Source: Bacteroidota bacterium
GTDB lineage: Bacteria; Bacteroidota; Bacteroidia; Chitinophagales; Chitinophagaceae
Assembly (NCBI GenBank): GCA_046049675.1
Contig: JBJORA010000090.1
Coordinates: 16,114-80,113 of the forward strand
DNA length: 64,000 bases
Reading direction: 5' to 3'
In this document: positions 17,675 through 59,673 of the stretch, piece by piece
Numbering within the stretch: the stretch's first letter is position 1
How the letters are laid out: every line of letters begins with the position of its first letter
Notes under the pieces: generated by a model
Database searches by the model: none
What the model was told of the DNA's origin: nothing
The model's input: the letters and a program-made list of their open reading frames with translations, nothing else
Program-made: the position numbers and the translations under genes

Positions 17675-17680
17675 ATTAAA

Positions 17681-26381: not shown

Positions 26382-26552
26382 TTAACCACAAAAGCCACCA
26401 TAGTTATTTTGGCAACGCGTGCGTTTACACAAACTCTATAATCCAGCCCTTCGGCAAAACCAAAAGATATGTCTTTTCACCTATTTTTTGGGCAGTCTAA
26501 AAATATTTACTACTTTTGTTAACCTATTTCGTTAATAATATTTATCTTTTCA

Positions 26553-26885: not shown

Positions 26886-26910
26886 AACAGATAGAACTTA
26901 GGTAAACACA

Positions 26911-43182: not shown

Positions 43183-43234
43183 TTGCAAGCGTCTACACAA
43201 TTTGTTCTCACAGAAAAAATAATGGATTAAAAAT

Positions 43235-43265
43235 GGAATACGATAAAAAGTATTCCATTTTTTTA
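43235..43265 (+). terminator. intrinsic terminator
   Basis: GGAATAC-gataaaaa-GTATTCC followed by ATTTTTTTT. Confidence 0.55.
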
Positions 43266-43425: not shown

Positions 43426-44157
43426 ATGGGAAAATTGAAAATTTTACTAGTACTTACTTTTATTTCAGCACAAGCTTGTGCACAACAATTAGATAGTATT
43501 CAAGCTAGATTTGCTGAGCGAGTTTGTAACTGTATTGGAGAAATAGCCGAATATGAAGACTTGAAACCTAAGATAGATAGATGTTATAAAGATACATTCA
43601 ACTTTATTTTTAATAATTCAACACCAGAAGAAGTTAAATTTTACCTCGGTGAGGGAAATTTACAAAAGATTGGAATGAAGCTAGAGTATTATCTAAAATC
43701 ACAATGTCCTTCAGTTAGAAAAGTGATTCAAGAATACATAAAACCTAAGAAAAGTGAAGGCAGCTATCCAACTAATTTAGATGAAAAAAAATTAGAAGCT
43801 AAACGCAAGGATATAGATGACTTGGAAGGAAAAATTGTAGCATTCGACGCTGAGATAGTTAAAGTTAATAGATCAAACCCAGAGAGGATATTTCTTGAAG
43901 TAAAACTACAAAATGGAGAAAAGCTGTGGGTTGGAGACATGACAAATAGCGAATTGAATATCGAAGGAAATAAAAGAAGATTTTTGGGATATTTTGTTAC
44001 GACTGAAAAAGATGATCAAGAACAAACGGAAATGGGTTACTATATAATTTCCTTTGCATCATATGAAAAGATCACTGACAATTTAGTAATGTATCCTGGC
44101 ACTGAAAAACAGATATATGAATGGGCAAATGGAAAGGTACCTAAATCTAAAAAATAG
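43426..44157 (+). CDS. secreted hypothetical protein (cassette gene)
   Basis: Signal peptide MGKLKILLVLTFISAQACA. Confidence 0.45.
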   Translation: MGKLKILLVLTFISAQACAQQLDSIQARFAERVCNCIGEIAEYEDLKPKIDRCYKDTFNFIFNNSTPEEVKFYLGEGNLQKIGMKLEYYLKSQCPSVRKVIQEYIKPKKSEGSYPTNLDEKKLEAKRKDIDDLEGKIVAFDAEIVKVNRSNPERIFLEVKLQNGEKLWVGDMTNSELNIEGNKRRFLGYFVTTEKDDQEQTEMGYYIISFASYEKITDNLVMYPGTEKQIYEWANGKVPKSKK

Positions 44158-44178
44158 AAATGCGGCAGCTAAGAGCGA

Positions 44179-44240
44179 TTTGCCAGAACTAACCGACAAA
44201 TGCGCGTTCTCCAATACTTCAGAACTACCTTTGCAAAGCC
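44179..44240 (+). repeat. R1 intergenic repeat copy 1 (TTGCCaaa..GCTGGCtAACC..CTTCAcAGCTAcCTTTGnaAaGCC)
   Basis: Aligns with the copies at 44987, 45995/46148, 48340, 54599 and 55568. Confidence 0.55.
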
Positions 44241-44278
44241 GGCAAACCTAGAGTGTAACTTCCGAAAACCTCAATACA

Positions 44279-44968
44279 ATGAAAATACTTCTAATATTGC
44301 TTTGCACGTTTACAACTATTCAAAATTGTTTTTGTCAGAAACTTGAAGGAGAGTTTACGAATAGCCGGGATTTATCAATTTACCTTAGGCAAGAATATGT
44401 TGTTTTACATCACAACCCAGAGGTTTGTTGCAATCCAGCAACATGGGATACCGGAACCTACAGAATAGTAAATGATACGTTGAAACTGGCTTTTGGCGAA
44501 ATCAAAAGCAGTATTAGATATAATTTGACCTTCAATAGAAATGGATTTCATACGCGCAATAGAATAAATAAATTAGTTAGAATTAATTTTAAAATGCCAG
44601 ACAGTTATTATGGCAAAGAAAAATATCAATATGACAGTTTAAATTTTGACAAAAGCAACCTCTTTTTTTACGACATAAAGGGACGTAAAGTAGATAGTCT
44701 AACCATTAATCCCTGGTATAACTCAGAAGCATATGAAATAATTGTTCCTAAATCAACAAATAGAATTAGGGTCAACTTTGGGAAAGGAATTAAAAACGAA
44801 TATGTTTTACCAAAAGGCTTTAATGAATTTAATATTACAGTTAATTTAAATCGAACAGGCACATACGGCAGACAGCGCTATACTAGGGAATTCGCGATAG
44901 TGCAAACGAATGACACGCTATCAATGAAAGACATTTATGGTTTGCAAGGATACGCAAAAATTAAATGA
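44279..44968 (+). CDS. secreted hypothetical protein (cassette gene)
   Basis: Signal peptide. Confidence 0.45.
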   Translation: MKILLILLCTFTTIQNCFCQKLEGEFTNSRDLSIYLRQEYVVLHHNPEVCCNPATWDTGTYRIVNDTLKLAFGEIKSSIRYNLTFNRNGFHTRNRINKLVRINFKMPDSYYGKEKYQYDSLNFDKSNLFFYDIKGRKVDSLTINPWYNSEAYEIIVPKSTNRIRVNFGKGIKNEYVLPKGFNEFNITVNLNRTGTYGRQRYTREFAIVQTNDTLSMKDIYGLQGYAKIK

Positions 44969-44986
44969 GCTGGGCCTGCACACAAC

Positions 44987-45050
44987 TTGCCTAAAGTGGC
45001 TGGCTAACCCAAAATATCCAACGCTTCACAGCTATCTTTGTAAGGTCGCC
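44987..45050 (+). repeat. R1 intergenic repeat copy 2
   Basis: TTGCCTAAAGTGGCTGGCTAACCC...GCTTCACAGCTATCTTTGTAAGG. Confidence 0.6.
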
Positions 45051-45072
45051 AACCACTAGGCGCAATTCACGA

Positions 45073-45972
45073 ATGCTAAACATGACAAGGGCACTAATTT
45101 TTGCATTAATTTTATTGAACATTTCATGTGATGATAGCACGAAAAGCAGCCTCAAACAAGAATATCAAAAACAAAAAATGATAAAGAATAAGGAGAACAT
45201 ACTGAAAGAATTAGATAGCGTCTTCAAAGAAATAAGTGACACGTATGGAGGAAAAGAAAGTCACTCGAACATAAAGTATAATTTCTTCTTAGACTTAGAA
45301 CATGGTTATGTAGAAACAGCGGGAAGTAAAATTCACCTTTTTGGTGATGAGAAAAATTGGGCCATCGTCTTTGAAAAAATTGGGTATCACAATAGAGCAT
45401 TTCAAATACAATCAGAACTGAACTTTATTGGGAATTGTATAAACTATAAAAAAGAAAACCATGGCTATGGCGATGAATATACTAACACAGAAGATATTGC
45501 TTTAATTGATAACGAAGAATTAGAGAAAATCCAATTACCTGAAAACGAAGAAGAAGATTGCTTTGAAATGATTGATCCAACTATAGATAAGGTGAAAATT
45601 AGAAATTCAATAATTAGCATAAAAATAGAACAAGACGAATTTGCAAAGCTTCATATGAACTTAGTAGACGAAAATAATCCGAAAGGCTACATTAGTTTTG
45701 GCAATTTCGCAAGGTACTTATATGCCAAGCAACCGAATGAACTCAGTGCGAATCAAAGCGAAATAAGAAAGCAATTACCGAATAACATTCCATTTATAAT
45801 GACAATTGACAAATTCCACTACAAATCAAGCTACGAACCCAAAAACAAACCAAGCACCCAAGAAACCTATAACTTAATTGCAGACGTTTTAGTTTCGCTA
45901 AATAAGGAACTGTGGAAGCCAAAAGAAATAGTAAATAATGATTGGTACAATTGGGAATCAGGACATTTATAG
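45073..45972 (+). CDS. lipoprotein, hypothetical (cassette gene)
   Basis: Lipobox LLNISC. Confidence 0.45.
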   Translation: MLNMTRALIFALILLNISCDDSTKSSLKQEYQKQKMIKNKENILKELDSVFKEISDTYGGKESHSNIKYNFFLDLEHGYVETAGSKIHLFGDEKNWAIVFEKIGYHNRAFQIQSELNFIGNCINYKKENHGYGDEYTNTEDIALIDNEELEKIQLPENEEEDCFEMIDPTIDKVKIRNSIISIKIEQDEFAKLHMNLVDENNPKGYISFGNFARYLYAKQPNELSANQSEIRKQLPNNIPFIMTIDKFHYKSSYEPKNKPSTQETYNLIADVLVSLNKELWKPKEIVNNDWYNWESGHL

Positions 45973-45994
45973 CAAGACCTGCCCCTTACGCGTT

Positions 45995-46168
45995 TGTGCA
46001 AAAGCAGCTGGCAAACGCCCGTTTTTTCCGCAGTGCATAGCTGCACGCATTAAGCACCAAGCGCAGTAGGCAGTCATAAAATAAAAGCAAAAAATAATTA
46101 ACGGCGCTTACCAAAAGCAGCATGCTACCACGCTCAATCTAAGGCCTCATAACTATCTTTGTAAAGCC
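45995..46168 (+). repeat. R1 repeat copy 3, split by a ~125-bp insertion carrying the hairpin GTGCA-TAGC-TGCAC
   Basis: Upstream half TTGTGCAAAAGCAGCTGGCAAACGCCC at 45995. Core CATAACTATCTTTGTAAAGCC at 46148. Confidence 0.45.
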
Positions 46169-46219
46169 ACTAGACATTGTGGGCAATTTTGGTAGAGCAT
46201 GCGCAAATGACAACACAAA

Positions 46220-47170
46220 ATGAAAAACTCGAAACTTAGAACTTTACTTATCGGACTTATTGGAGGCGTAGCTTACGCATTTGTAGCAATGCTAATCGTA
46301 ACACATTTTCACAGCAATGTTTCCGTTGCATACATATTTGTTTTGCCCATTGTTTTAGGCGCTATTCCTGTTTTGTTTTCTACAAAAGAGCAGCTGAGTG
46401 CCTATAAAACGTATCTACTCTTACCTTGGTTTATCACGTTCACCTTTTTTCTGCTAAGCTATGTATCAGGTTTTGAAGGTATGATTTGCCTTGCTATTAT
46501 CGTTGCACCATTTCTTTTACTTGGCACATTGGGCGCCTTTATATTTAGGCTTATTAAACTTAGAAGCAAGGGCCCTGGCACAAAGCTGTATGTTTCATTA
46601 CTCATACCATTGATAATACTCGGCATTGAAACCAATTTTCAAGCAAGCAACCATATTCATACGGTTTCAACAACAATTGATATTAGCGCCGACAAGTCTA
46701 AAATATGGGAAAATGTAAAGAATGTAAAAGACATTAAAGCTGACGAAATTGAAACACACTTTGTTCATTTAATTGGAGTACCTAAACCGCTGAACGGTCA
46801 ACTAGACAAAGAAGAAATTGGCGGAATACGTCATATCACCTGGGAGAAAGGAATCAAATTTGAAGAAAGAATAACAAGTTGGCAAGATGAAATAGGTTTT
46901 AGCTACGACATAGATGTTGACCCAAATTCAATTCCGCCAAAAACACTAGACGAGCACGTCATGATTGGCGGTAGATATTTTGACGTTTTGAAGGGTAGTT
47001 ACAAGATTGATCAATTGGATGACACAAAAAGCAAAGTAACGCTAACTTGTACTTACCGCGTCACAACAAACTTAAATTTGTATAGCAAGCTATGGGCAGA
47101 CTTTATACTTAACGACTTTAACGAAATGATTTTGGAAGTAATAAAGAAGAGAAGTGAAAAAGTTAATTGA
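46220..47170 (+). CDS. membrane protein with C-terminal SRPBCC (START/polyketide-cyclase-like) domain
   Basis: 4 N-terminal TM helices. C-terminal domain pattern typical of SRPBCC. Confidence 0.4.
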   Translation: MKNSKLRTLLIGLIGGVAYAFVAMLIVTHFHSNVSVAYIFVLPIVLGAIPVLFSTKEQLSAYKTYLLLPWFITFTFFLLSYVSGFEGMICLAIIVAPFLLLGTLGAFIFRLIKLRSKGPGTKLYVSLLIPLIILGIETNFQASNHIHTVSTTIDISADKSKIWENVKNVKDIKADEIETHFVHLIGVPKPLNGQLDKEEIGGIRHITWEKGIKFEERITSWQDEIGFSYDIDVDPNSIPPKTLDEHVMIGGRYFDVLKGSYKIDQLDDTKSKVTLTCTYRVTTNLNLYSKLWADFILNDFNEMILEVIKKRSEKVN

Positions 47171-47678
47171 CAAAAGCACTTGCAACAACGAGGAAACAAA
47201 GATGCACACACAAGACATCATCAGCGAATTGACCTTATCTGGAAAGCTGTCAACAGACACGATTCGAGAAATTGAAGAGAATGGAAGTTTAAGACAAGAC
47301 ATAGTGGAATACTTCAACAAAAACAGGAATAGGAAATTTTGTCTTGAATTCTTAAATGTGTTAAGTGAACTAAGGAAAAATTCTGATGTAGGACTTTCTG
47401 GAGATAGTTTAATGCTTGCTTGTTATATACTTGGAAAACATAGTCATATTGAAGACTGCTTAAAAATTTGGGAAACCAAAAGACTAGACTTTGATACATA
47501 CTGCTCTATTGACATTCAATTAGTAGCATTTGCAGGAGCGCAAGAAACTATTGAGTACTTAAAAAATCAAACTTCCGAAGAAGCTAAAGCAGCAGCGGAA
47601 TATATGATTGGTTGTTCTAAAGCAGGGGACTTCAAAGATCTAGAAACTTATTTTAATGAAACACCTTGGTTTGTATGA
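47154..47678 (+). CDS. hypothetical protein (start may be 47202)
   Basis: 174-aa ORF. Confidence 0.35.
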   Translation: MKKLIDKSTCNNEETKMHTQDIISELTLSGKLSTDTIREIEENGSLRQDIVEYFNKNRNRKFCLEFLNVLSELRKNSDVGLSGDSLMLACYILGKHSHIEDCLKIWETKRLDFDTYCSIDIQLVAFAGAQETIEYLKNQTSEEAKAAAEYMIGCSKAGDFKDLETYFNETPWFV

Positions 47679-48313
47679 CAATTCAAACAATAAATTATTT
47701 TGAACAAAACAAAAACATTCCACAACATGGACAAGTGATTCTCGGGCAACAAACAGAAGAGTTAATTGTGGTATACCAGGCCTATAATAAGCGAATTGCC
47801 GACTATGCAACGTCAAATCAAAAACTCGGAGGAACCCATTTTAGTTATAATAGAATGTCTTGGATAAAACCAAACTTTCTGTGGATGATGTACAGATGTG
47901 GTTGGGCCGAAAAAGAAAATCAAGAAAACGTAATTGCTATTTGGATAAAGAAGTCCGACTTTGAAACAATTCTTGAAAACGCAGTTTATTCGTCGTTCCA
48001 AGAGAATGTTTATCAAAATAGAGAGCAATGGCAAAGTCAACTAGCGCAGCAAGAAGTAAGGATTCAATGGGATCCCGATCACGACCCGTACGGCAATAAA
48101 CTTGAAAGAAGAGCAATCCAATTAGGACTGAAGGGCAAAATTCTGAAAGCATTTGGAGAAGAGATGATATACAAAATTGAAAACATTACAGACTTCGTCA
48201 AAACTCAAAAGCAGTTTGTAGACAAAAATGAAATTGAAAAACTAATTGTACCCACAGAAACAATCTTCAAGACAAGCAAGCCGTTGCTGAATGAAAAAAT
48301 TGGAATAAGTTGA
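47666..48313 (+). CDS. DUF4291 family protein
   Basis: LIVVYQAY...RMSWIKPNFLWMMYRCGW matches the DUF4291 signature from recall. Confidence 0.5.
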   Translation: MVCMTIQTINYFEQNKNIPQHGQVILGQQTEELIVVYQAYNKRIADYATSNQKLGGTHFSYNRMSWIKPNFLWMMYRCGWAEKENQENVIAIWIKKSDFETILENAVYSSFQENVYQNREQWQSQLAQQEVRIQWDPDHDPYGNKLERRAIQLGLKGKILKAFGEEMIYKIENITDFVKTQKQFVDKNEIEKLIVPTETIFKTSKPLLNEKIGIS

Positions 48314-48339
48314 TGAACAGCGGTTAGCAGCGTTGTCTA

Positions 48340-48396
48340 AAAATTGCGAGGCAAATTCAAATTTTCTGTGGCGTCACAGCTACCTTTGCCAAGGCC
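48340..48396 (+). repeat. R1 repeat copy 4
   Basis: GCGTCACAGCTACCTTTGCCAAGGCC. Confidence 0.55.
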
Positions 48397-48434
48397 CTAA
48401 TAGTCATATACTAGCACGAAACAACCACCTGAAA

Positions 48435-49172
48435 ATGAAATACACAAAAGACGACATATTGCAAATGCTTATTGCAGAATACAAATATTGCATTGCATTT
48501 GACCTTGGTGTACTTAAAGACAAAGACATCAATTACGAAAGTTCAATACTTGAATGGCTAGATACATTTGATTTAGTTGACACAATACGTTTGGCAAAAA
48601 TTTACCACAGAAAATTTAACTTAAGTAGACCTCTTTCAGAATTAGAGAATCTTCTGGAAGACCAGGAGAATACTACGATATCTGATTTTTGTGAATACAT
48701 TGCAGCAAATGCCGAAAGAGAAAAAATTGATCCAATTAAACTTTTGGGAAGGAATTGCACAAGTGCCGCGATATTTAGAGCACTGAAAAATAAATTAGCA
48801 GCAATTGGTATAGATACAAAAGGCTTAAAACCAAGTAGTGAAATCAATCCATTTTTTCTAAAATATGGTGGACAATTATTTAGTGAAGTTAATAGACTTG
48901 CACCAGGAACATGGACAGAATTTGATTTCAAACCAAACAAAATGTCGAGGCTAGGAAGAAATATATTGTTCCTAGGCGTTCTATTACTAATTTGTAGGTG
49001 TTGCTTTGGCAAGTTTCAATGGCAATTAACTTTACCAATAATAATTGGCATTGTACTTAGTTACATCGGCGATAAAAACCAACCAGAAAGATTAAGCATC
49101 AATGGCTTTAAGAATTTCAGACAACTTATTCTTGCAATAGAAAGAAATTTAAGTGAAGCAGGTGTATGCTAG
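48435..49172 (+). CDS. hypothetical protein (cassette gene), C-terminal TM segment
   Basis: ATG at 48435 immediately follows the R1 copy. The ORF track's 48333 start would overlap the repeat. Confidence 0.4.
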   Translation: MKYTKDDILQMLIAEYKYCIAFDLGVLKDKDINYESSILEWLDTFDLVDTIRLAKIYHRKFNLSRPLSELENLLEDQENTTISDFCEYIAANAEREKIDPIKLLGRNCTSAAIFRALKNKLAAIGIDTKGLKPSSEINPFFLKYGGQLFSEVNRLAPGTWTEFDFKPNKMSRLGRNILFLGVLLLICRCCFGKFQWQLTLPIIIGIVLSYIGDKNQPERLSINGFKNFRQLILAIERNLSEAGVC

Positions 49173-49231
49173 TACCTGCAGCTTAGAGACATCAGCGAGA
49201 TAATACAACTTCTGATTGACACAACTTCTAT

Positions 49232-50041
49232 GTGAACTGCATTAGTCAGTATCATTTGCAAGTAGAGATTCAAAATCTTTGGAGAATGAAGCAATTCTAT
49301 GAAACCTACAATGGATTGCCAAAACTCTCACCACTGGTGAGAGAAATTAGTTGGACAAATAATTTACTAATCCTATCCAGGACAAAGACTTTAGAAGAAA
49401 AGGAGTTCTACTTAAAGATTTGTAAGCATGAGAATTATAGCAAACGAGAATTGGACAGGCAAATAACTTCTAGTCTGTACGAAAGAACGATGTTGGGAGA
49501 CGTTAACATTTCCAATTTAACCAGAGAAATTTATCCTAACGCGGCAAATGCTTTTAAGGACAGCTATTTATTTGACTTCTTAAACCTGCCTGAACAACAC
49601 AATGAAAAGGATTTACAAAGAGGATTAATCGCGCAAATGAAGGACTTTATTCTTGAATTAGGCAAGGACTTCATATTTATTGCTGAGGAATTTAAAGTAG
49701 AGGTTGGCAATAGTGATTTCTATATTGACTTACTATTTTATCATAGAGGTTTACAATGTCTGGTTGCTTTTGAACTAAAAACAACCAAATTCAAACCTGA
49801 GCACTTAGGACAAATAAATTTTTATTTGGAAGCATTGGACCGTGATGTAAAGAAAAATAATGAAAATCCGAGCATTGGAATTTTACTTTGCAAGGATAAA
49901 GACAATGAAGTTGTTGAATATGCAATGAGCAGAAACATGTCTCCGACAATGGTAGCAGAGTACAAAACCCAACTCCCAGACAAAAAGCTATTGCAAGCAA
50001 GGTTACACGAAATATTCGAAGCGGGTGAAAGCAAAGCATAG
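49232..50041 (+). pseudogene. DUF1016/YhcG-like PD-(D/E)XK nuclease family gene, 5'-truncated (~100 aa missing), GTG-initiated ORF
   Basis: Begins mid-family at NLWRMKQFYETY. The C-terminus retains the PD-(D/E)XK-like core (DLLFYH...ELK). Confidence 0.45.
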
Positions 50042-50120
50042 CAAGGAGATTTAGGCAATGTTGGCGTTTTCCTAATTTATGCTGCGTTTAGATTAAAAAT
50101 GCGCTTAAGCAGACTACCCC

Positions 50121-52541
50121 CTACCTCTTGACCCACTTCAACACCTTCGTTTCCAATCGATTTTTTACCTCAATAAAGTAAATTCCGTTTTCAAAATTCG
50201 CAATTGGTATTTTGCTATTGCCATTTGAAACACTCATTTGTAAAAGAACAGCCCCATTCACATCCATCATTTTCACCTCGCTAATTTCAGTTAATCCAGC
50301 AATTGAAATAAAGCTAGTCGCAGGATTTGGCAATATTTCTAATTTACTACTAACCAAACCCTCAACCAAAACAGTATTACTTGCTAATGCTCTACCAGAA
50401 GGCATATCAACATACACAAGCTTAAAATATTTTTGAATAGAAATAGGCTGCAAATAATTGTAAGATTCGGCGGACGGATTCAAAACTACTTTTTCTGTAT
50501 AATTGTTGCCGTCTTCGCTAATGAGTAATTCCTTCGCGATTGTATTTTTTGAAAGTGTCCAGTCAAAGCGATAGTAATTGTTGATAACACTAGCTTTAAG
50601 TTCAATAGCATTTGTATTCAAAGGCGATAGATACAGGGGCAATATTTTTACCGCGGTGTTTGCAAGACCATACTGGCTATTATTAATAAATGTATTACCA
50701 ACAGTTGTAAGGCTAGTAAATAGTCCGTTGGTGGTAACTTGTCTTGCGGCGCAATTGTCCCTATCCCAGCTCCAAGCTAGCCAGCCAATATCTGCCTGTT
50801 TAGCAAATTTTAAGATGCTATCTAGTAAAATCACATCACTGCAATCGCTTGTAGCAGCAACCTCTCCTAGCACAAAGGGATAGCTACTATTTTGCATACT
50901 CGTAATTCTATTTTTTAAGATGGTACTTGTATTGGTGGGCAGTGGCCAATAGGTGTGCACACTAAAAATAATATTGTGCAAGGGATCAATATTGTTCAAA
51001 TGCGAAGCTACGCTATTGCTAAGTATAGCAGTTTCGTTGCCACCACAATCTGGCGCATCTATCATAATAGGATAATTGAAACCATAAGTGCTTCTTAGCT
51101 GCGTAATAATATTACCATAAATATTTTTATAGGCTGTGGGGCTTCCGCCAAGCCAACCCCATGCGCTACTACCGAGGGCTTCGTTGGCATAGTTCACAAT
51201 AATATAGCCTTGGTATTTGTTGAGAATATTAAGCATATTGGGATTTGTCCACCAACTTAGCAATGCGGTTAGACCAGCAGAATCTTGTGTACAGGTTTGG
51301 TCGTGCAATTCTGGAATCACAATCATGCCCGCTTGCACACATTTGCTGATGGCACTATCTAGCAAAGCCCAATTGGTATAGTGTGGCGCACCACCACCGT
51401 TGACATACCACACTAAGCGAACGGCATTTGCATTGCTTAATGCGATTTGGCTAATGCGCAATTCTGTACTATCCCAGCCCCAATTATACGGTGCGTAGTT
51501 TACACCTCTTAATACAACGGTGTCGCCCATAGGACCTAAAATGTACTTACCAGCAGTATGTATATACAAGCCATTATTTGGACCAGCTATGCCACCAATA
51601 ATACTACCATTTACGGGTAAACTTGTTGTGGTACTGCACGCAGGAGCTGTGGCTAAATTATATTGGTTACAAAAATCCCAGATCGCCTGTGCTGGCTTGT
51701 AACCAGCTGCTACAGGCCATCCGTGGCCGCCGCCAACCATGCGTATGAGAAAAACTTCTTTAGTACTTGCACTCGCAGGGCCACTGCAAAATGTAAGTTT
51801 TTTTACAGCACCAACTGTTACTGTACCAGGTACATTTGTTGTACTTGTATAAGTATTATTGCCGCAACCATAATTGGCAAAAAAACTAAAAGGCCATTCT
51901 CCCCAAGCCGCGGGTGTATGATCGCCATCGGGATAGCTTACCGTAAAATCGGCATCGCCATGTATATGATAGATAGGCACTTTTGTGTAAGACGCCGAAG
52001 TGAATATGGTATTGAGCGCAGCATTATCGCCCCAGCAACTGCCTGCAACGGGAGCAATGCCCGCTATTTTACTTGGTAATTGCAGTGCTAAGTTATAGCA
52101 CATATACGCACCACCGCTATGGCCAGTTGCATATACTTTAGAAGCATTAATATTATACGTACTGCACAGATGCGCGGTTAAATCGCTAAAGAACTGTACA
52201 TCATCTACAGCACTAGCATTGCCAGTACCAGCATCGCCAGCTACAAAATCTACATACTTATTCCATAGCCCACCTGCTTGGTGAGAACTTGGATACACTG
52301 CCATAAAATTATTTTGATCTGCCACGCTATCAAAGCCACTATAACTTTTAATGCCTGCGCCAGTACCACCATCGCCGTGCAGTACATACATTACAGGCAA
52401 ATTGCTGGCTACACTAGTGCCTGCACTATGAATAATAAATTTGCGCCATACACCGCCACTCATAATGCTATCAGTGATATTGACGGCAAGTAGGCTAGTG
52501 CTGTACATGAAACTTAAGAATAGCAGGTACAATTTTTTCAT
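50121..52541 (-). CDS. secreted tri-modular enzyme: esterase/PHB-depolymerase-like alpha/beta hydrolase + GH5 glycoside hydrolase + T9SS C-terminal sorting domain
   Basis: MKKLYLLFLSF signal at 52541. LHGDGGTG...GHSGG esterase block. GH5-like NEALG.../GEV blocks. C-terminal Por-secretion sorting domain. Confidence 0.6.
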   Translation of the reverse strand: MKKLYLLFLSFMYSTSLLAVNITDSIMSGGVWRKFIIHSAGTSVASNLPVMYVLHGDGGTGAGIKSYSGFDSVADQNNFMAVYPSSHQAGGLWNKYVDFVAGDAGTGNASAVDDVQFFSDLTAHLCSTYNINASKVYATGHSGGAYMCYNLALQLPSKIAGIAPVAGSCWGDNAALNTIFTSASYTKVPIYHIHGDADFTVSYPDGDHTPAAWGEWPFSFFANYGCGNNTYTSTTNVPGTVTVGAVKKLTFCSGPASASTKEVFLIRMVGGGHGWPVAAGYKPAQAIWDFCNQYNLATAPACSTTTSLPVNGSIIGGIAGPNNGLYIHTAGKYILGPMGDTVVLRGVNYAPYNWGWDSTELRISQIALSNANAVRLVWYVNGGGAPHYTNWALLDSAISKCVQAGMIVIPELHDQTCTQDSAGLTALLSWWTNPNMLNILNKYQGYIIVNYANEALGSSAWGWLGGSPTAYKNIYGNIITQLRSTYGFNYPIMIDAPDCGGNETAILSNSVASHLNNIDPLHNIIFSVHTYWPLPTNTSTILKNRITSMQNSSYPFVLGEVAATSDCSDVILLDSILKFAKQADIGWLAWSWDRDNCAARQVTTNGLFTSLTTVGNTFINNSQYGLANTAVKILPLYLSPLNTNAIELKASVINNYYRFDWTLSKNTIAKELLISEDGNNYTEKVVLNPSAESYNYLQPISIQKYFKLVYVDMPSGRALASNTVLVEGLVSSKLEILPNPATSFISIAGLTEISEVKMMDVNGAVLLQMSVSNGNSKIPIANFENGIYFIEVKNRLETKVLKWVKR

Positions 52542-53030
52542 ATGTATAAAGTTTAGTGTTGAGTCTGTGTTTACATTAATCGACCACCTATTGTAAAAGT
52601 ACTTGCTTAAATTTATTTCTACCAAGGTTTATAGCTTATCCTGATGATACCGGCATTGATACCACCGAAATTGCCCTTTCGTAAAATGCTGTAATGCGTG
52701 TTGAGTAAAGTACAATTATTCATATGGATATAGGCGCTGGAACCATATGCGGATAATACGTTTTAAATGCAAGTTTTTCACAGGGTAAAATTAGAAGTAT
52801 TGCATACTGTAAAGAGTGGCAATAAGTAAACGGCGTGCTTTAGTAAGTGTGCCACACTGTGTGTGGGAAGCAAGGCATATACAATGAAGTTTGTGTGTGC
52901 AGTACGTTTTGATGGTACTTTAGTAGGACTATCGTTTTAGAAGGCCTATGTAGGAGGACTTGGTGTTAGTATAGTGTGCTAAGTACGAAGGCTTGGTATT
53001 TTTGCTGAAGCAATAAAAGAATAATTTACA

Positions 53031-53128
53031 TCGCAAAGCACGGTTTTGTGCTAGAAATTATTATTTTTGAATATGATAACAAGGCCCGAAAGCAATCCGC
53101 AGATGTGTATCGTCAATCACCTAATCTT
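53031..53128 (+). repeat. R2 intergenic repeat copy C
   Basis: CATCGCAAAGCACGGTTTTGTGCTAGAAATTATTATTTTTGAATATGATAAC... Confidence 0.6.
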
Positions 53129-53180
53129 TAGGCGTAAATAAAAAAATCTAGCATGAACATTCACAAATTATAGAATTCAG

Positions 53181-53750
53181 ATGATGAGATTATTTTTAAT
53201 AGTATTCATAAGTATAATTTTAATTTTTCCTCAAAGCATCTATGCCAAGAAAAAAAAGAAGCGAGTTTCTACATTAGAAAGTTTACGCTATGACAGCAAA
53301 ACTGACAAAACAACTTATTTAGTAGTTCCGTTTGGAAAGATTAACTTAAAGGGTAATTGGACAGAAGTAAAAGATAAAAATCCCCCCTATGGGAAACTTG
53401 TAAAAAACGCTCAAGGAGTAGAAATACTATTGGACTTATTAGATTGTAGTTTTTCCTTCAATGATACTGACAAAGTAAAGAATTATCAATTTGTTGAACG
53501 CTATTATAACTGGGAAAAAGCATACTTCGAAAAAAGTCCTGAGCTAAAAACAGAAGTAATTGAAAGAGATTCAATAAACAATTTTATGATTTACCGAATC
53601 AATGGAAAAATTAAAAATGAAGACTACGATACCTATGTCTTTGTAACTGAAAAAGACTGTAATGTAATGACTTTATTGATTAGTAATTACGTCAACATTT
53701 CTCGTGAAGAAAAGATAAGGCTCTTTAAAGAGATTTACAATACAGAATAG
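53181..53750 (+). CDS. secreted hypothetical protein
   Basis: Signal peptide. Confidence 0.45.
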   Translation: MMRLFLIVFISIILIFPQSIYAKKKKKRVSTLESLRYDSKTDKTTYLVVPFGKINLKGNWTEVKDKNPPYGKLVKNAQGVEILLDLLDCSFSFNDTDKVKNYQFVERYYNWEKAYFEKSPELKTEVIERDSINNFMIYRINGKIKNEDYDTYVFVTEKDCNVMTLLISNYVNISREEKIRLFKEIYNTE

Positions 53751-53869
53751 CCTGCGCTCATCACGCGCTTTACGAAATTGTTGTCTTCAATTATTTTTTT
53801 AGCTACAGCAACTTTGTAAAGCACTAGTAGCTTGCCCTAATAAAAGAAAATTCAAAAAATAATCCTCAA

Positions 53870-54508
53870 ATGAGCATAAAGTATACGACAGAAGATGGCA
53901 AGTTAATTAGTGAATATGAAGCCAATCAAATAGGTACATATATTAAAACAATTAGCCCTAGCAAAAATTCAAAAATTGAAGAATCCTACTATGAAAATAA
54001 GTTATCTGATGTTTGTTATTACACCGACCTAAATGAAAGTATAGAAAGCGCAAAACATAGTTTAGCAGAACTGCATTATCAAAATTTTTATATAATTCAA
54101 AAAATACAGAGAGGAGAAAATTTGCTAATAAGTACAATTAGCTATCAGGATGGAATTGAAGCAGTAACAGGTAAGGAACTATATAATAGGTCTAATCAGC
54201 TATTAGCATATGTAAATAATTACAGTTCAAAAAGTAATTTTATTAAAATTGGTAATACTAAAAAATATATATACACAACTGAAAATTATTATGAAGAACC
54301 TGAATTCTTTCTTGCTTATGAACCTAATTTCATTGCTCATTATAAAAGCGATGGAAATTTAGACTATATTGAAGGGCCTTTTGACGGCATAGATGACCAA
54401 GATGTAGAATACCACCGTTTTGCCACTATTGAAGAATTGCAAAAATTTCTTGATTGGTATGAAGGTAATAAGGAATCAGCGGAATTCTATTTTTATGCTC
54501 AGTTTTAA
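53870..54508 (+). CDS. hypothetical protein
   Basis: 212-aa ORF. Confidence 0.4.
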   Translation: MSIKYTTEDGKLISEYEANQIGTYIKTISPSKNSKIEESYYENKLSDVCYYTDLNESIESAKHSLAELHYQNFYIIQKIQRGENLLISTISYQDGIEAVTGKELYNRSNQLLAYVNNYSSKSNFIKIGNTKKYIYTTENYYEEPEFFLAYEPNFIAHYKSDGNLDYIEGPFDGIDDQDVEYHRFATIEELQKFLDWYEGNKESAEFYFYAQF

Positions 54509-54598
54509 AGTGAGTAATTACTAAGAGTGACGTATTAATAAGTGCTAAGGTGAAAATCAAGCAAATATTTAGATTTATCAAAATACAGTATATAGCAG

Positions 54599-54660
54599 CT
54601 TGCCAAAAATAGCTGGCAAACCTGCAATTTCTAGATCTTCACAAGTACCTTCGACAAGCC
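54599..54660 (+). repeat. R1 repeat copy 5
   Basis: CTTGCCAAAAATAGCTGGCAAACC...CTTCACAAGTACCTTCGACAAGCC. Confidence 0.5.
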
Positions 54661-54706
54661 GCCAAACGTTAGTGGCAATTACGCGAGACCCACAAGAATA
54701 AAGACA

Positions 54707-55174
54707 ATGGAAATAAATTATATCAAAGGCGATGCTACTAATCCAATTGGAGAAGGAAATAAAATAATTGTGCATATTTGTAATGATATTGGTGGCTGGG
54801 GAAAAGGATTTGTTATGGCAATTTCTAAACGCTGGAAACAACCTGAACATCAATATAGAGAATGGTTTAAAGCAAAAGATAATTTTAGCCTTGGACAAGT
54901 TCAATTTGTGCTAGTAGAAGAAACACTTTGGGTTGCTAACTTGATTGGACAGCACAAGATTAATAAAGACGAAAATGGAAACGCACCAATTCGTTATGAA
55001 GCAATTTTTCAAGGACTTGAACAAGTAGCTCAATTTGCTTTAGAAAGAGACGCGACTATTCATATGCCAAGAATCGGTTGTGGACTTGCAGGTGGCTCGT
55101 GGGAGAATATAGAGCCTTTAATAAACTCGACATTAATGTCAAAAAACATTCAAGTAACTGTTTACGACTTTTAA
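54707..55174 (+). CDS. TARG1(C6orf130)/DarG-type macrodomain protein (ADP-ribosyl hydrolase)
   Basis: IKGDATNP...IVHICNDIGGWGKGFVMAISKRW and MPRIGCGLAGGSWENIEPLI...IQVTVYDF align block-by-block with human TARG1 (recall). Confidence 0.6.
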   Translation: MEINYIKGDATNPIGEGNKIIVHICNDIGGWGKGFVMAISKRWKQPEHQYREWFKAKDNFSLGQVQFVLVEETLWVANLIGQHKINKDENGNAPIRYEAIFQGLEQVAQFALERDATIHMPRIGCGLAGGSWENIEPLINSTLMSKNIQVTVYDF

Positions 55175-55175
55175 T

Positions 55176-55532
55176 ATGTGGACACCTATCACTTTAATAG
55201 AATTATTCGACCAAATTCAAAAAACCGAAACTGACCTAAATGGTGAATTAAGGAATTTTTGGCAACTAATTAGAATTGAGCCGAAGAAATGGTCAGAACT
55301 AACATACGGAAACGAAGGAAATGGATTTTGGGTTGTTGCAATTTGTGGTCAAAAAATAATTTGGTATAACGATATCGAAGATGGCTTTAATATTTCTAAT
55401 TATACAAATTATGGACAGATAGACGGTTATTTTTGTAATCAAGAAGAATTAAGCTGGGCAATTAGGAGATTATATGAATTAATTATATTTGGTGGACAAA
55501 TACAGGGACAAGCAGGACCTCCATCAAATTAG
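55176..55532 (+). CDS. hypothetical protein (translationally coupled to the macrodomain gene)
   Basis: Start lies 2 nt after the upstream stop. Confidence 0.4.
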   Translation: MWTPITLIELFDQIQKTETDLNGELRNFWQLIRIEPKKWSELTYGNEGNGFWVVAICGQKIIWYNDIEDGFNISNYTNYGQIDGYFCNQEELSWAIRRLYELIIFGGQIQGQAGPPSN

Positions 55533-55567
55533 AAATATAAAAAACAAACAATAGCCACCACCAACGC

Positions 55568-55626
55568 TTTGCTAAAGATAGCTAGCTAACCCGCATTATC
55601 CAGCGCTTCGCAGCTACCTTTGACAG
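55568..55626 (+). repeat. R1 repeat copy 6
   Basis: TTTGCTAAAGATAGCTAGCTAACCCGCATTATCCAGCGCTTCGCAGCTACCTTTGACAG. Confidence 0.6.
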
Positions 55627-55646
55627 TAGTCTAGCACTAGCAGTTA

Positions 55647-56156
55647 ATGAACCTTAAAATACTAAAAGAATTGAAATTTGAAATAGTTAAGACACTAATA
55701 CCACTTGTAACTATGTTCTTAATAGGTTGCTACGGCGTAAATTCCGAAACCTCACAAATTGGAAATATAAATTCAAGTTGTTTAACAAAAAATGCTTGGA
55801 AAGAAATGCAGAATGAATACGCAATAGAAAAAATTACCGATTCAACATTTCAAGAAGGGCTGAAACATGTTGAAAACCATTTTATTAAACCTGCGTATGT
55901 AATTTATTTTCAAGACGAACCAAAAGAGATTGTAGGTTTCGACGCAACTGCTATAAGAGTTGTTTACAATCCAAAAATTGCTGCTTTTGGTGTTGACGGT
56001 TTAAGCCCACAATTGAGTGACAAAGAACAAATAAGAATTAGAAATCGAGTTTTAGAAGTAATTAGAGAATATGCGTGTGAAGAGGGCAAGGAAGCAATGA
56101 CAAAAGAAATGAACGAGCCTGCTATTTTTAGTAAAGCGTATTATGAAAAAAATTGA
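55647..56156 (+). CDS. lipoprotein, hypothetical
   Basis: TM/signal then Cys (LIGCYG). Confidence 0.4.
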   Translation: MNLKILKELKFEIVKTLIPLVTMFLIGCYGVNSETSQIGNINSSCLTKNAWKEMQNEYAIEKITDSTFQEGLKHVENHFIKPAYVIYFQDEPKEIVGFDATAIRVVYNPKIAAFGVDGLSPQLSDKEQIRIRNRVLEVIREYACEEGKEAMTKEMNEPAIFSKAYYEKN

Positions 56157-56326
56157 ATATTGAAGTCAAGAAGAAAAGCAATAAGTGCTTTGCTTTTACA
56201 CAACAGGTTTGTTCTGGGTCAATTATATTTTTTACTTTTATAAAGTTTCCTGCGGGCAGATAGTTTGCTTTTCAATCTACAACTGCATAAAATGATGGAA
56301 CCATATCTGCTACATATAAACACTAA

Positions 56327-57040
56327 ATGAATATGAAACATTTCGACATTAGGCTTGGCGTTTACTTAATAATAGTTTTTATTATTATCACGCCAACGGG
56401 AACTATTCTTCATGAACTGGGCCATTATACAGTAGCTAAATATTTTAATCATGAAACATCGATTAATTATAAAAGAACTAGTACTTCGAAGAAGCAGTTG
56501 ATTGATTATTTTATGGAGACTCAAAACAAGTATGCCGATGAATTAAAGAACGACATAGATTTTCCAGGTAAGCAAGAGTATATAGATGCTAAAAAGAAAT
56601 ATGGAAAAGAAAACATGTTTATACTGCTTGGAGGACCTCTTCAAACGATGCTAACAGGCACGATAGGCTACATAATCCTATTTAGGTTTAGAAAACGATT
56701 TATAAATAGAGAACGAGTAAATATTGGAGGTTGGATTTTTGTTTTTATCGCACTATTTTGGCTTAGACAAATTTTCAATTTATTGTCTGTTATTCTGATT
56801 TATATGAAAGATGGAGAACTCCCAACGGCAGGCGACGAAGTTAGGCTTGCACTGTACTTTAACATTAACCCCTTGTCGATTCAATTAACGACAGGCTTAA
56901 TAGGAGTACTAATCTTAATTTCAATTTTGAGGCTTCTCCCCAAACGAATTGTAGGCACATTTTTGATTTCAGGATTCATTGGCGCACTTTTGGGATATTA
57001 TCTTTGGTTTGTACAAATCGGAAAATACATTTTGCCGTAA
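56327..57040 (+). CDS. polytopic membrane protein with intramembrane HExxH (M50-like putative metalloprotease)
   Basis: TGTILHELGHYTVAKYF in the first TM helix. ~6 TM. Confidence 0.35.
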   Translation: MNMKHFDIRLGVYLIIVFIIITPTGTILHELGHYTVAKYFNHETSINYKRTSTSKKQLIDYFMETQNKYADELKNDIDFPGKQEYIDAKKKYGKENMFILLGGPLQTMLTGTIGYIILFRFRKRFINRERVNIGGWIFVFIALFWLRQIFNLLSVILIYMKDGELPTAGDEVRLALYFNINPLSIQLTTGLIGVLILISILRLLPKRIVGTFLISGFIGALLGYYLWFVQIGKYILP

Positions 57041-57189
57041 GCAATACTTAGCACCACACAACAGCGTTTTTACAAAATCGTGACCTGAATTGTAAATCAA
57101 AAATAATTATTCTTGCTTACATTTGTTTGTAAATAAAACAAGTGCTTCTTGCATAACAACTACGTCACTTCCGCGCTAACGGTAATTTT

Positions 57190-57696
57190 ATGACACTACC
57201 TTATATTGACATATATGTTTTGACAAGCAATCGCGAAAGACGAACACTTGAGAAATTTTTAGATGAATATACAGATAGAGAATCCATTGAAGACATGCAT
57301 GATAGCGAAATCAATATGCTACCTAAAGATAGATCTTATCTGGAAGTAAATAGCGAAGACTACATATGGATTAAGGCGGAAACGCTTACCAATTGCATTG
57401 ATATTGGACTTTCTAATCCAAGCAATTGCTTTACACTTTATTTAAGATCAAAACACAGAGAAATTAACTTAGTCATTCTAAGCTTTACACAAGATGGAAA
57501 ATTAATAGTTGGGCTTTCAATCTTTGAATATATAGATGCAGAACAAACAATAGACAATTACAAATTTGCAAAAGAACTAAAAGACGAGATGTATAGAAAT
57601 TATAATGGCAGTTTGGCATACTTTGGACTTGAGGCTTCTCCTGCACACACAGAAGAGGAATTCAAAAAGCAGACGCTGACTTTCATTAATAACTAG
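57190..57696 (+). CDS. hypothetical protein
   Basis: 168-aa ORF. Confidence 0.4.
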   Translation: MTLPYIDIYVLTSNRERRTLEKFLDEYTDRESIEDMHDSEINMLPKDRSYLEVNSEDYIWIKAETLTNCIDIGLSNPSNCFTLYLRSKHREINLVILSFTQDGKLIVGLSIFEYIDAEQTIDNYKFAKELKDEMYRNYNGSLAYFGLEASPAHTEEEFKKQTLTFINN

Positions 57697-57700
57697 CACT

Positions 57701-58195
57701 TTGGCAATGGGCATAATTAAAGTGGCAAAAGACGACAAGTCTATACATAGCATTTGCATTGCTTCAATTAAGCGAAGCACAATGAAACCCCATGACTTCA
57801 AATGGACTAATTTTTATGAATCTAATTCTGACTTTCAATATTCAGGATTGCAACTTGACTTCATAGAAGATGAACTAATGATTTGCTCAACAATTATTGA
57901 TACAGACAATTACAGTATTCTAACAACAAGGCGCCTACTAACGAAACTTGAAGGACAATTAAGCATAGAGTATATTCAAGGGGCAATTGATAAAATGTAC
58001 GGAGACTTTAAAGGCTATCAAACCAAGGGTTTTACGTTTGGAAAAGTACAGGTTGAAAACGGCAATGAAATAAAATACTTTATTGAAACTGGAAAAGCTT
58101 CAATGATAATGATACGCGCAGTAAGAACCGTAATTACAATAACGCAAATGTCAATTAATAAAGTTGACGATGATACAAGAAGTGAAAACAAATAA
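57701..58195 (+). CDS. hypothetical protein
   Basis: 164-aa ORF. Confidence 0.4.
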   Translation: MAMGIIKVAKDDKSIHSICIASIKRSTMKPHDFKWTNFYESNSDFQYSGLQLDFIEDELMICSTIIDTDNYSILTTRRLLTKLEGQLSIEYIQGAIDKMYGDFKGYQTKGFTFGKVQVENGNEIKYFIETGKASMIMIRAVRTVITITQMSINKVDDDTRSENK

Positions 58196-58316
58196 AATGA
58201 ACTGCCTTGTTACGACGTGCCTTATTGCTTGCCATGTGTTTTGTTATAGTATTTTTTGTCTTGTTCGATGTTGCGAATCTGCTGCTACGATAGGTAGTTG
58301 GCCTCGCTTCCACTAC

Positions 58317-58442
58317 AATTATTTTAGCAAAGTGTGCTTTTGTGCCAGAAATTATTACTTTTGAATATATTAGCAGCGCCTGCAGCTTCTCAGCAACAAC
58401 GCATCTTTCAACAATGGCTTAGTTCAATTAGCATCGCAACCC
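58317..58442 (+). repeat. R2 intergenic repeat copy D
   Basis: CAATTATTTTAGCAAAGTGTGCTTTTGTGCCAGAAATTATTACTTTTGAATATATTAGC... Confidence 0.6.
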
Positions 58443-58524
58443 TGTCAATCATCATTCTCTGGCTATAGTGCAGCGAAATTGAAGAATTCAATAGAAATTA
58501 TGATAAACCAAACAACTTAACCAA

Positions 58525-59124
58525 ATGAGAATAGAACCAATTGTAGAATTTCTAACAGAAGGCGTACTTATTATCGCAAACATTACGAAATGCAAGGAAT
58601 ACTATGCCGACAAGGAATTTGACTATGCCTACCCTGAGGGATTATCCGATTTATTAATAAATGGCGTCATTCACATTATAACGACCGAGGAACACGTAGA
58701 AGAAATTCATTTTATTTTTGACAATGAAGCCTTTGAGTTCACAGAAATAGATAGGCGTGGAAAGACATGGCTGCACAGTGAATCATACAATTATATGAAG
58801 GTCGACGAAGGAGATGAAGTACGATTGATTTCTCATGCTGATTTCACGCAAATGTGCAACAATCACAAGGGCGATCTAGAGGCCCAAATTGATAGTGCGT
58901 TGAGGATTAGAAATATTTTGAATCCTAATTATCCCATTGATAAAGAAACTTACTTAAAAGAAAATTTTCCAATTTTAGATTTCCCTGCTGGGCAATGGAG
59001 AGTAAATGTTTACTCAAAAACATATGATGGTGGACTATTGCCAGACTTCGCCTTTCATTTACAAAAAATGGATACTGTTGAATTAGAAAAAATTACCCTA
59101 GAGCCAATTGAAATCTTCGGATAG
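58525..59124 (+). CDS. hypothetical protein
   Basis: 199-aa ORF. Confidence 0.4.
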   Translation: MRIEPIVEFLTEGVLIIANITKCKEYYADKEFDYAYPEGLSDLLINGVIHIITTEEHVEEIHFIFDNEAFEFTEIDRRGKTWLHSESYNYMKVDEGDEVRLISHADFTQMCNNHKGDLEAQIDSALRIRNILNPNYPIDKETYLKENFPILDFPAGQWRVNVYSKTYDGGLLPDFAFHLQKMDTVELEKITLEPIEIFG

Positions 59125-59198
59125 AAGAATTGTACAGATGGCAGCGGCGATTGTTATACAAAGTATTGACACTAGCATAGCACAAGCAATTAGATTGT

Positions 59199-59621
59199 AT
59201 GGACTGGATTGTAGAAAAAATATTTCTTTTGACCTTGTTCTTTAGGTCTGAAGCTAATACCGAATTGCTTTCATCTTCTGATTCATCCAAGATTGTTGAC
59301 GTTTATTCGTACTGTTGTAGCGAAGAAAAGGAAATAATATTATTTAATGACTCAACATTTAATTATTACTGGGGCAACAACCACAATGCTGCAACATTGT
59401 ACTCATCTGGTACTTATCGAAGAACAGATTCGTCAATAATTCTCCAAAATAAAATGCAGTACAGACGAAGAAAACAATATCAAAAGGTTTACCAACCTAA
59501 CGAGTACGTCTTAAGAAATGATACAATTTTCTTGTACAACATCAAAGACACATCGAAGATGGAAGAATGGGAAATTAGACACTCGAAACTTATAAGGAAT
59601 TTGAATAGGGAAAAAGTGTAA
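59199..59621 (+). CDS. hypothetical protein
   Basis: 140-aa ORF. Confidence 0.35.
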   Translation: MDWIVEKIFLLTLFFRSEANTELLSSSDSSKIVDVYSYCCSEEKEIILFNDSTFNYYWGNNHNAATLYSSGTYRRTDSSIILQNKMQYRRRKQYQKVYQPNEYVLRNDTIFLYNIKDTSKMEEWEIRHSKLIRNLNREKV

Positions 59622-59673
59622 CTGCCGCTGCCGAGGTTTTGCGCTCTTGCTGCTTTTGTAGTAGATTTGACCA

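Follow-up and report, generated by a model that had tools for sequence, protein, structure and literature searches.

A repeat-bounded array of small accessory genes in an unsampled Bacteroidota lineage: a candidate integron-like cassette array without an integrase

The R1 array and its genes

The DNA analysed here is a 64,000-nt stretch of contig JBJORA010000090.1 of a Bacteroidota bacterium, referred to as the window throughout; the same DNA forms positions 6976-70975 of the JGI metagenome contig Ga0451720_0000028. From ~43.4 to ~60.5 kb the window carries a chromosomal array (~17 kb) of ~20 small plus-strand genes, which can be divided into roughly 14 compact cassettes of one to three co-oriented accessory genes each. 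Six copies of a repeat of ~90 nt, R1, lie between positions 44168 and 55654, all on the plus strand and each before a plus-strand gene, as a first-pass annotation of the sequence had already noticed. We see about an even chance that the region is an integrase-less, integron-like cassette array, by now partly fossil, whose boundaries are formed by a non-canonical, promoter-bearing element. The first-pass annotation placed the array at 43426-56156. The same-strand array is real, but it is longer than that and runs on to ~60.5 kb with further degenerate copies, recognised by eye.

Proteins were compared with Pfam at E<=0.01, ten array proteins without a match were rescanned at E<=5, and NCBIfam and PADLOC were also used. 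The genes of the array are:

43426-44157, plus strand: first array gene; its product is secreted, has 243 aa and matches no family; a hairpin resembling a terminator is present at 43229-43265
44279-44968, plus strand: cassette gene for a secreted 229-aa protein with no family match
45082-45972, plus strand: cassette gene for a lipoprotein with the Pfam domain DUF7003
46220-48313, plus strand: three-gene cassette encoding a 316-aa membrane protein, a 158-aa protein (47202-47678) and a DUF4291 protein (47675-48313)
48435-49172, plus strand: cassette gene for a 245-aa protein with a C-terminal membrane segment and no family match
49232-52625: interruption of the array by an N-terminally truncated DUF1016/YhcG nuclease gene (plus strand, 49232-50041) followed by a gene with esterase, GH5 and type IX secretion system (T9SS) tail parts (minus strand, 50121-52625)
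53181-54508, plus strand: two single-gene cassettes, encoding a secreted protein of 189 aa and a protein of 212 aa, no family match
54707-55532, plus strand: two-gene cassette of a TARG1/ALC1/DarG-type macrodomain gene (54707-55174) and a gene for a 118-aa partner (55176-55532)
55647-60483, plus strand: seven genes in five or six cassettes, encoding a lipoprotein of 169 aa, a membrane protein of 237 aa, and proteins of 168, 137, 199, 140 and 254 aa

Unrelated small accessory genes on one strand, with a conserved repeat between them, give the array the cassette-type architecture that had been proposed for it. Pfam recovered the previously named DUF4291 and truncated DUF1016/YhcG genes, the TARG1/DarG-type macrodomain was recognised at 54707-55174, and signal or lipoprotein-type N-termini are visible in several products. 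The label SRPBCC for 46220-47170 could not be confirmed; no Pfam match was obtained even at E<=5. The minus-strand gene that breaks the array, with its esterase, GH5 and T9SS-sorting domains, has a higher guanine-plus-cytosine (GC) content (0.41), and a left-box remnant (GCAGCTTAGAGAC) is present at 49178-49190, just ahead of the interruption.

The R1 copies are listed below, with coordinates that run from the left box to the 3' tail:

44168-44259, plus strand: copy c1; left box GCTAAG, -7-like box TACCTTTG at 44226-44233, right box CTAGAG
44981-45066, plus strand: copy c2; left box CACAAC, TATCTTTG at 45033-45040, right box ACTAGG
46097-46187, plus strand: copy c3; left box ATTAAC, TATCTTTG at 46154-46161, right box ATTGTG, inner helix TTAC:GTAA
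48323-48421, plus strand: copy c4; left box GTTAGC, TACCTTTG at 48381-48388, right box ACTAGC
54591-54679, plus strand: copy c5; TACCTTCG at 54646-54653, right arm GCCGCCAAACGTTAGTGGCAAT
55560-55654, plus strand: copy c6; left box ACCAAC, TACCTTTG at 55615-55622, right box GTTAATG overlapping the ATG of the gene at 55647

The 3' ends of the copies lie 0-40 nt before plus-strand ATG codons at 44279, 45073, 46220, 48435, 54707 and 55647 (the start after c4 is ATG 48435, not TTG 48333). This distance is tight, and 9-124 nt separate the previous stop codon from R1. In the 64 kb, a profile built from the six copies finds each of them at E 1e-18 to 1e-23, values that are circular for the six themselves, and nothing else at better than E 0.016; the 47 kb outside the array contain no copies. 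The pattern GCTRGCWAAC-N20-CARSTAYCTTYG matches three copies, against 0.00 expected in 100 shuffles. Conservation is best in the centre (CTTCACAGCTAYCTTTG) and the ends are decayed: AAC of the left box is kept in three of the six copies, and GTT of the right box in two (c5 and c6 only).

Four further elements can be recognised, together with a second repeat, R2:

45985-46078, plus strand: degenerate extra element (CTTACGCGTTTGTGCAAAAGCAGCTGGCAAAC...), directly after the stop of 45082-45972; seen by eye, with weak nhmmer E-values of 0.016 and 0.9
53751-53869, plus strand: degenerate R1-like element c7, ahead of 53870; seen by alignment and by eye, with no significant profile match
57055-57189, plus strand: degenerate long-type element, CACACAACAGCGTTTTTACAAAATCG ... 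CTTCCGCGCTAACGGTAAT; its left arm has weak E-values of 0.1-0.34 with profiles of elements from outside the window
60488-60536, plus strand: left-arm remnant, ACGCAACAGCCCTTACCAAAAG; weak nhmmer E-values of 0.029 and 0.09
53033-53086 and 58327-58380, plus strand: R2, two copies 80% identical, a short hairpin plus TTTG...TATTTTTG

As assigned by eye, the element at 45985-46078 and copy c3 (46097-46187) bracket a spacer without an open reading frame (ORF), that is, an empty cassette. The remnant at 60488-60536 comes after the last plus-strand gene and the next gene is on the minus strand, while the first array gene has no element upstream. Between the cassettes of 55647-60483 only degenerate elements or R2 are found. 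The R2 copies are upstream of genes 53181 and 58525 and constitute a second promoter-like repeat within the array. The R2 stretch GTTTTGTGCTnnGAAA resembles the centre of long elements found on two other contigs (L012/L036 type).

R1 itself is rare, since exact-pattern scans gave one true copy outside the window. In 185,579 species genomes there were four chance matches, none of them in Bacteroidota; viral contigs gave none and metagenomes gave the one true copy, on contig L006, between an insertion sequence (IS) of the IS3 family and a RibD_C-type gene. Short tandem GTTTTAGCCTTGAAAAG-like repeats are present at 240-480 of L006, upstream of the IS3 that abuts this copy. A scan for sigma-70 promoters and intrinsic terminators showed no enrichment, and R1 lacks the hairpin-plus-T-run form of a terminator.

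The host represents an unsampled lineage of Bacteroidota, with T9SS cargo, and does not belong to Bacteroidales. Directly 5' of the array there are genes for a TonB-dependent receptor and a lipoprotein, and directly 3' of it NmrA-like and M16 peptidase genes. For the flanking TonB receptor, the closest relative (77% identity) is on a 3.5-kb contig, and the next one shares 37% identity. The GC content of the window is ~36% (0.31-0.43 in 2-kb bins) and that of the array genes is 0.33-0.37.

A wider family of structured elements

Other same-strand arrays (contigs L012, L014, L017 and L048) were reached by following the macrodomain protein. The intergenic elements of L012, present in six copies of 110-160 nt, align at both their ends with both ends of R1. 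Members of the same family are found between genes in L017, and only one or two copies, partly truncated, were found in L014 and L048, those of L048 being diverged. The cargo of the related arrays includes beta-lactamase and PhzF genes (both in L012) as well as GNAT, DinB, OsmC, methyltransferase and macrodomain genes. A profile built only from elements outside the window, and therefore not circular, matches the right arm of c5 (E 2.8e-5) and the R1 copy of L006 (E 1.2e-8). What connects the remaining five window copies to the family is only that they are clearly homologous to c5 and L006; in 64 kb, profiles of the short arms by themselves lack statistical power. By these similarities, R1 very probably belongs to this wider structured Bacteroidota family, as a short and partly decayed form. 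The Saprospiraceae contigs L014, L015 and L016 carry a different repeat of 165-250 nt, unrelated to R1, with a TTATATTTG box and a AAACGTTTAAAAACG motif; in L014 its five copies (1433, 8284, 13857, 17615 and 19160) stand before plus-strand genes of the same-strand array. L048 (GCA_963852545.1) contains a tandem repeat of ~545 nt in ~3.7 copies at 15792-17837, in the same-strand accessory-gene array that starts with the macrodomain cassette.

The layout of the family is YTAAC, 1-2 nt, the 5' strand of an inner helix, a variable centre, the 3' strand of the inner helix, a 5-nt bulge and GTTAG-N3-CAAT. In the outer helix (P1) GCTAAC is paired with GTTAGC. The next helix (P2) has its 5' arm after the 1-2 nt and its 3' arm before the 5-nt bulge (AAAAC and variants), and the interior holds an inner helix P3 and a variable loop. 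P2 covaries, examples being GCGGTTTTGC:GCAAAGCCGC, TGCATTGGC:GCCAATGC, GGTATTGC:GCAATACC, CTACAAG:CTTGTAG and, in window copy c3, TTAC:GTAA. In an arms-only alignment of 23 sequences, 74% of the cells pair versus 70% in shuffles (reached in 0/500), and 12 double-change pairs were counted versus 6.8 expected (0/500 shuffles), with the caveat that the structure was derived from the same sequences as were tested; slid controls give 23-43% pairing. The L012 copies fold at z -3.3 to -5.6 relative to shuffles. Among 19 arm sequences from outside the window, compared with the end boxes R'' (RYYYAAC) and R' (GTTRRRY) of integron attC sites, AAC is kept in all 19 (GCTAAC in nine; also GGTAAC, ACTAAC, TATAAC, GCCAAC and CCTAAC) and GTT in 16, mostly as GTTAG. 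An imperfect palindrome with a variable centre and an L box conserved in structure is thus found in the family, and weakly so in the window copies, which keep P2, lack P3 and have mostly degenerate end boxes.

Sequence conservation in the end boxes, an inner helix of which only the pairing is conserved, a bulge in one arm and a variable centre make up a design that points to recombination, since integron attC sites are built in this way. That the elements of this family do recombine is a possibility we rate slightly short of even.

Just before the 3' strand of P2, the wider family has CCGCCTTCG versus CTAYCTTTG in R1, a change that produces a -7 box. The TAnnTTTG box of Bacteroidota promoters that had been described in R1 is exact in five of the six copies, 32-66 nt before the ATG, but c5 has TACCTTCG instead. 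In R1 there is no TTTG at the -33 position (~19 nt upstream of the -7 box). TTGCCA-N8-TGGCAA in c5 looks like an operator. The comparison fits the possibility that R1 is an element co-opted as a cassette promoter in this lineage, and the odds that it acts as a promoter appear to us balanced. Since the conserved centre supplies a -7 box before each next gene, each cassette is probably transcribed on its own.

Elements of this architecture also occur in phage-like DNA. A 20-nt right-arm motif was found in 22 IMG/VR contigs with one to five full elements each, and in contig L033 the elements flank methyltransferase genes. In the phage-like contigs the stop codon of the upstream gene overlaps the GTTAG side, and the next ATG is at a constant ~25 nt past the TAAC side. 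Rfam, at its gathering and at E-value thresholds, contains no family for R1 or for the phage-type element, and blastn of the latter gave no match in INPHARED phages or PLSDB plasmids. Between a 268-aa tyrosine integrase gene and a transfer-messenger RNA gene (8890-9056), contig L030 (7003-9056) carries two small ORFs, and the 105-nt phage-type element flanks each of them; this ORF pair looks like moron-type cargo at a prophage end.

In Polaribacter phage P12002L, elements of the same architecture flank methyltransferase genes as in L033, and two of them are the published attC1 and attC2 (supplementary primer table), predicted by HattCI as attC, the recombination site of integron cassettes. The site attC2 recombined with attI1 under IntI1 (PMC9892861). 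The attC1 site reads CCTAAC-AA-helix...helix-TAGCC-GTTAGCAACAAT (GTTAGCA), with the end boxes and the 5-nt bulge as in the family, and attC2 ends ..GTTAGGCACAAT (GTTAGGC), followed in the genome by ACAAT, that is, by a CAAT tail as in the family. Placement and orientation to genes are the same as in the IMG/VR phage-like contigs. The P12002L elements differ in that they show no significant sequence match to the element profile, nor one by blastn. Other authors have thus already taken sites with these end boxes, bulge and tail for attC, and the experimental support is mixed.

Cassette boundaries and the search for a recombinase

The macrodomain closely matches BT1257 (2fg1, E 4e-65); the ALC1, TARG1/OARD1 and DarG macrodomains are related to it. 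It is 75-85% identical across Saprospiraceae, Chitinophagaceae, Niabella, Pedobacter and Flavobacterium, and is usually followed by a partner of 106-123 aa. Such identity across distant Bacteroidota families, together with the usual partner, suggests a horizontally mobile two-gene module, which may combine reversal of ADP-ribosylation with a function of the partner. PDB sequence searches with the 118-aa partner, and likewise with the DUF4291 protein, found nothing. The AlphaFold model of the DUF7003 protein is confident (predicted local distance difference test score of 84) and has no PDB fold match.

The macrodomain pair recurs in three arrays (the window, L012/L013 and L017/L018), and its upstream junction is identical in all three: GTTAGTGGCAAT, with a related leader behind it. 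On the 5' side of GTTAG at this junction the sequences differ, L017 having an unrelated palindrome there. The triplet after GTTAG is a different one in other elements. The tail after GTTAG thus differs between elements but travels with the macrodomain cassette, which indicates that it belongs to the cassette; the crossover would then be at or next to GTTAG, like that between G and TT of GTTRRRY in integrons. The cassette boundary is found at this G/TT position of the right box (R'), to a resolution of a few bases and for one cassette in three arrays. In L017 a full element stands before the first cassette, right after a core gene, and in L012 an element follows the last cassette.

Insertion sequences are present in two stretches of L017 (11235-14620 and 19446-20555): an IS110-family element is inserted in the loop of one element, an IS91-type transposase gene with an integrase gene cuts another element at the left box, directly after CCACTAA, and a second IS110 copy is found further along the array. 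The IS110 family targets attC and REP (repetitive extragenic palindromic) hairpins.

The 60 window ORFs put through Pfam, nearly all those of at least 110 aa, include no Phage_integrase and no tyrosine or serine recombinase, in agreement with the earlier statement that the window lacks one. Likewise, phmmer with IntI1 and with the L017 integrase found none in the window. The first-pass annotation had suggested looking for a recombinase just outside; none appears downstream up to ~65.2 kb (~5 kb read past the array), nor among the ORFs scanned in the 43 kb upstream of the array. The integrases of contigs L025 and L030 are ordinary short phage integrases, not IntI.

The rest of the window offers some further features. 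Upstream of the array, the DNA from 19 to 39 kb has the look of a defence or stress island. At 19752-28002 and 38298-38693 it encodes a 1608-aa fusion of DEAD/ResIII and UvrD-type helicases, an HTH_3-IrrE/M78 protein and a Gp49/HigB-like toxin. An RNA-repair operon at 29131-38121 encodes SPFH/Band7, T4-type RNA ligase, Hen1 and RlaP nucleotidyltransferase proteins; its Pnkp is split into a ligase gene and a kinase-phosphatase gene, and a WYL/WCX regulator gene at 29131-30144 (minus strand) is divergent from it. An S-adenosylmethionine riboswitch (RF00162, 77.9 bits) at 12187-12295 precedes a cystathionine gamma-synthase-type gene (12460-13626) and a homoserine dehydrogenase gene (13627-14883).

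Interpretation, alternatives and known systems

The array works most like a cluster of attC sites lacking an integron integrase nearby (CALIN), if the analogy is valid, and conceptually like the recombinase-associated acquired interbacterial defense (rAID) clusters discussed below. A recombinase encoded elsewhere would have inserted the cassettes site-specifically, at GTTAG or right beside it, and the outcome would be n cassettes flanked by n+1 elements. With the GTT/AAC end boxes gone from most copies, the array is probably frozen now. With CALINs it has in common compact co-oriented cassettes, one structured imperfect palindrome per boundary with ends ..TAAC / GTTAG.., a covarying inner helix with a variable centre and a bulge in one arm, cassette-specific sequence right after GTTAG, an empty cassette, an IS110-family insertion in one element, and accessory cargo mostly without known function. 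It differs in the conserved CAAT tail after R' in the family and in the promoter-like box in the element here, classical attC sites not being promoters. No IntI adjoins the array, so the feature is CALIN-like at most.

Several observations weigh against this interpretation. No integrase adjoins this array or lies within +/-10 kb of the four other arrays, with the exception of the IS91-linked integrase in L017. The spacers of the element are 1-2 nt versus 5 nt, whereas canonical attC sites have about 5 and 5. Most end boxes of the window copies are lost and the external profile recognises c5 only; the window copies are poor hairpins (z -0.1 to -3.4), and RNAalifold on seven R1 copies gave no consensus structure. 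An 18-bp long-range arm model for R1 was dropped, being no better than shuffles. Only one cassette can be compared between arrays. DUF7003 was considered as a second shared cassette and rejected, as its homologues (57% and 46% identity) have ordinary surroundings that contain no elements. The orientation of the element in the phage-like contigs is opposite to that of the genes, which simple cassette exchange with chromosomal arrays does not predict, and 105-nt copies that are nearly identical recur in many such contigs, unrelated to one another and ranging in GC from 27 to 47%. Finally, attC1 of P12002L, the closest published look-alike, had been predicted by HattCI only and showed no recombination with IntI1 (PMC9892861).

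The near-identity of the phage copies also fits another explanation, namely that the element is a selfish palindromic repeat, a non-autonomous mobile hairpin of the miniature inverted-repeat transposable element (MITE) or REP type, which collects in a permissive region of dispensable genes without mobilising them. The arms resemble terminal inverted repeats, both orientations to genes occur across contexts, many phage-type matches are near contig ends, as is the case with multi-copy repeats, and one copy has an IS inside it. Such repeats would be dispersed in both orientations within one genome. In the 64 kb, however, all copies are in the array and on one strand, and the remaining 47 kb have none; gene boundaries have about one copy each, and within each array the orientation is uniform. 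Nor does this explanation account for a 3' tail past GTTAG that is cassette-specific and travels with the macrodomain cassette, or for the conserved asymmetry between the 1-nt and the 5-nt spacer, which transposase-bound inverted repeats do not need. No target-site duplication was seen at the flanks, where no rigorous test was made. We consider this explanation unlikely. We give somewhat less credit still to a purely regulatory module, in which a promoter with a palindromic operator or leader was spread by duplication or gene conversion among stationary genes. It would account for the TAnnTTTG box in five of the six copies at -32 to -66, for the tight distance to the ATG as against 9-124 nt from the previous stop, for the operator-like sequence of c5, and for the fact that the box-bearing centre, not the ends, is the most conserved block. 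But a -33 TTTG at the usual spacing is missing, the arms are homologous to box-less elements (the L012 type, CCGCCTTCG) and to phage copies facing away from genes, the remnant after the last gene has no plus-strand gene following and the first gene has no element, the L006 copy precedes an unrelated RibD_C-type gene beside IS3, and the cassette breakpoint is at GTTAG.

The first-pass annotation read the array as a rAID-type cluster of orphan immunity genes, which would protect against contact-dependent toxins, with a XerD-like recombinase outside the window or lost. The analogy is a good lead, because the authors of rAID-1 themselves noted that its intergenic repeats resemble integron attC sites (10.1101/471110; PMC12247911). 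Both systems belong to the same phylum and consist of co-oriented genes (100-300 codons here) in low-GC DNA with integron-like intergenic motifs. The same-strand cassette array with a promoter-like repeat stands as part of that reading; several products are secreted or lipoproteins, and the macrodomain could neutralise ADP-ribosylating toxins. The other parts of it are not supported. There is no 5' XerD-like recombinase (at least 44% identity to BF9343_RS08045): the scanned ORFs of the 64 kb include no recombinase, and directly 5' of the array are the TonB receptor and lipoprotein genes. At least two co-directional genes have GC of 41% or less, as in rAID-1, which is uninformative because almost the whole window is below 41% GC. 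A search of the cassette proteins against immunity profiles had been proposed. No product matches an Imm, SUKH, type VI secretion system (T6SS) immunity or PADLOC profile except the DarG-type macrodomain, the Imm and SUKH searches being negative at E<=5, so the orphan-immunity label is left with the macrodomain as its sole basis. No family of immunity to T6SS or polymorphic toxins was thus found in the content, the window lacks T6SS genes, the host falls outside Bacteroidales, and the related arrays carry general accessory cargo. A rAID-type array of orphan immunity genes appears improbable to us.

Another system shows some parallels. The promoter-stem-loop (PeSL) elements of T4-type phages are mobile regulatory cassettes in which a repeated promoter-plus-hairpin is found beside small variable ORFs and would favour the shuffling of genes as modules. 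R1 resembles them as a repeated, putative promoter-plus-hairpin module next to ORFs of this kind. In PeSL, however, homologous recombination occurs between the repeats, the promoters are sigma-70 early promoters, and conserved TAAC/GTTAG end boxes are absent.

A broader version of the integron-like interpretation is that Bacteroidota and their phages share a cassette system of their own, with a non-canonical attC-like element (YTAAC...5-nt bulge...GTTAG-N3-CAAT) and a trans-acting recombinase other than a neighbouring IntI. The window would then hold a fossil array of this system, in which the element of some lineages brings each cassette its own promoter. We put this forward as a rather unlikely, speculative scenario. 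If true, such a shared system would explain why integrons are nearly absent from Bacteroidota in IntegronFinder surveys (PMC9024848). A promoter-bearing element would also explain the expression of cassettes that are far from any array promoter. Even if R1 is only a decayed repeat, it would still be a useful marker of accessory-gene islands in unsampled Bacteroidota, and the element model provides a concrete sequence and structure for comparison with the rAID clusters of gut Bacteroidales. Same-strand arrays of small accessory genes are common in Bacteroidota. If their boundaries are formed by a phylum-specific attC-like element that phages carry too, they may represent a large overlooked route of gene capture and exchange.

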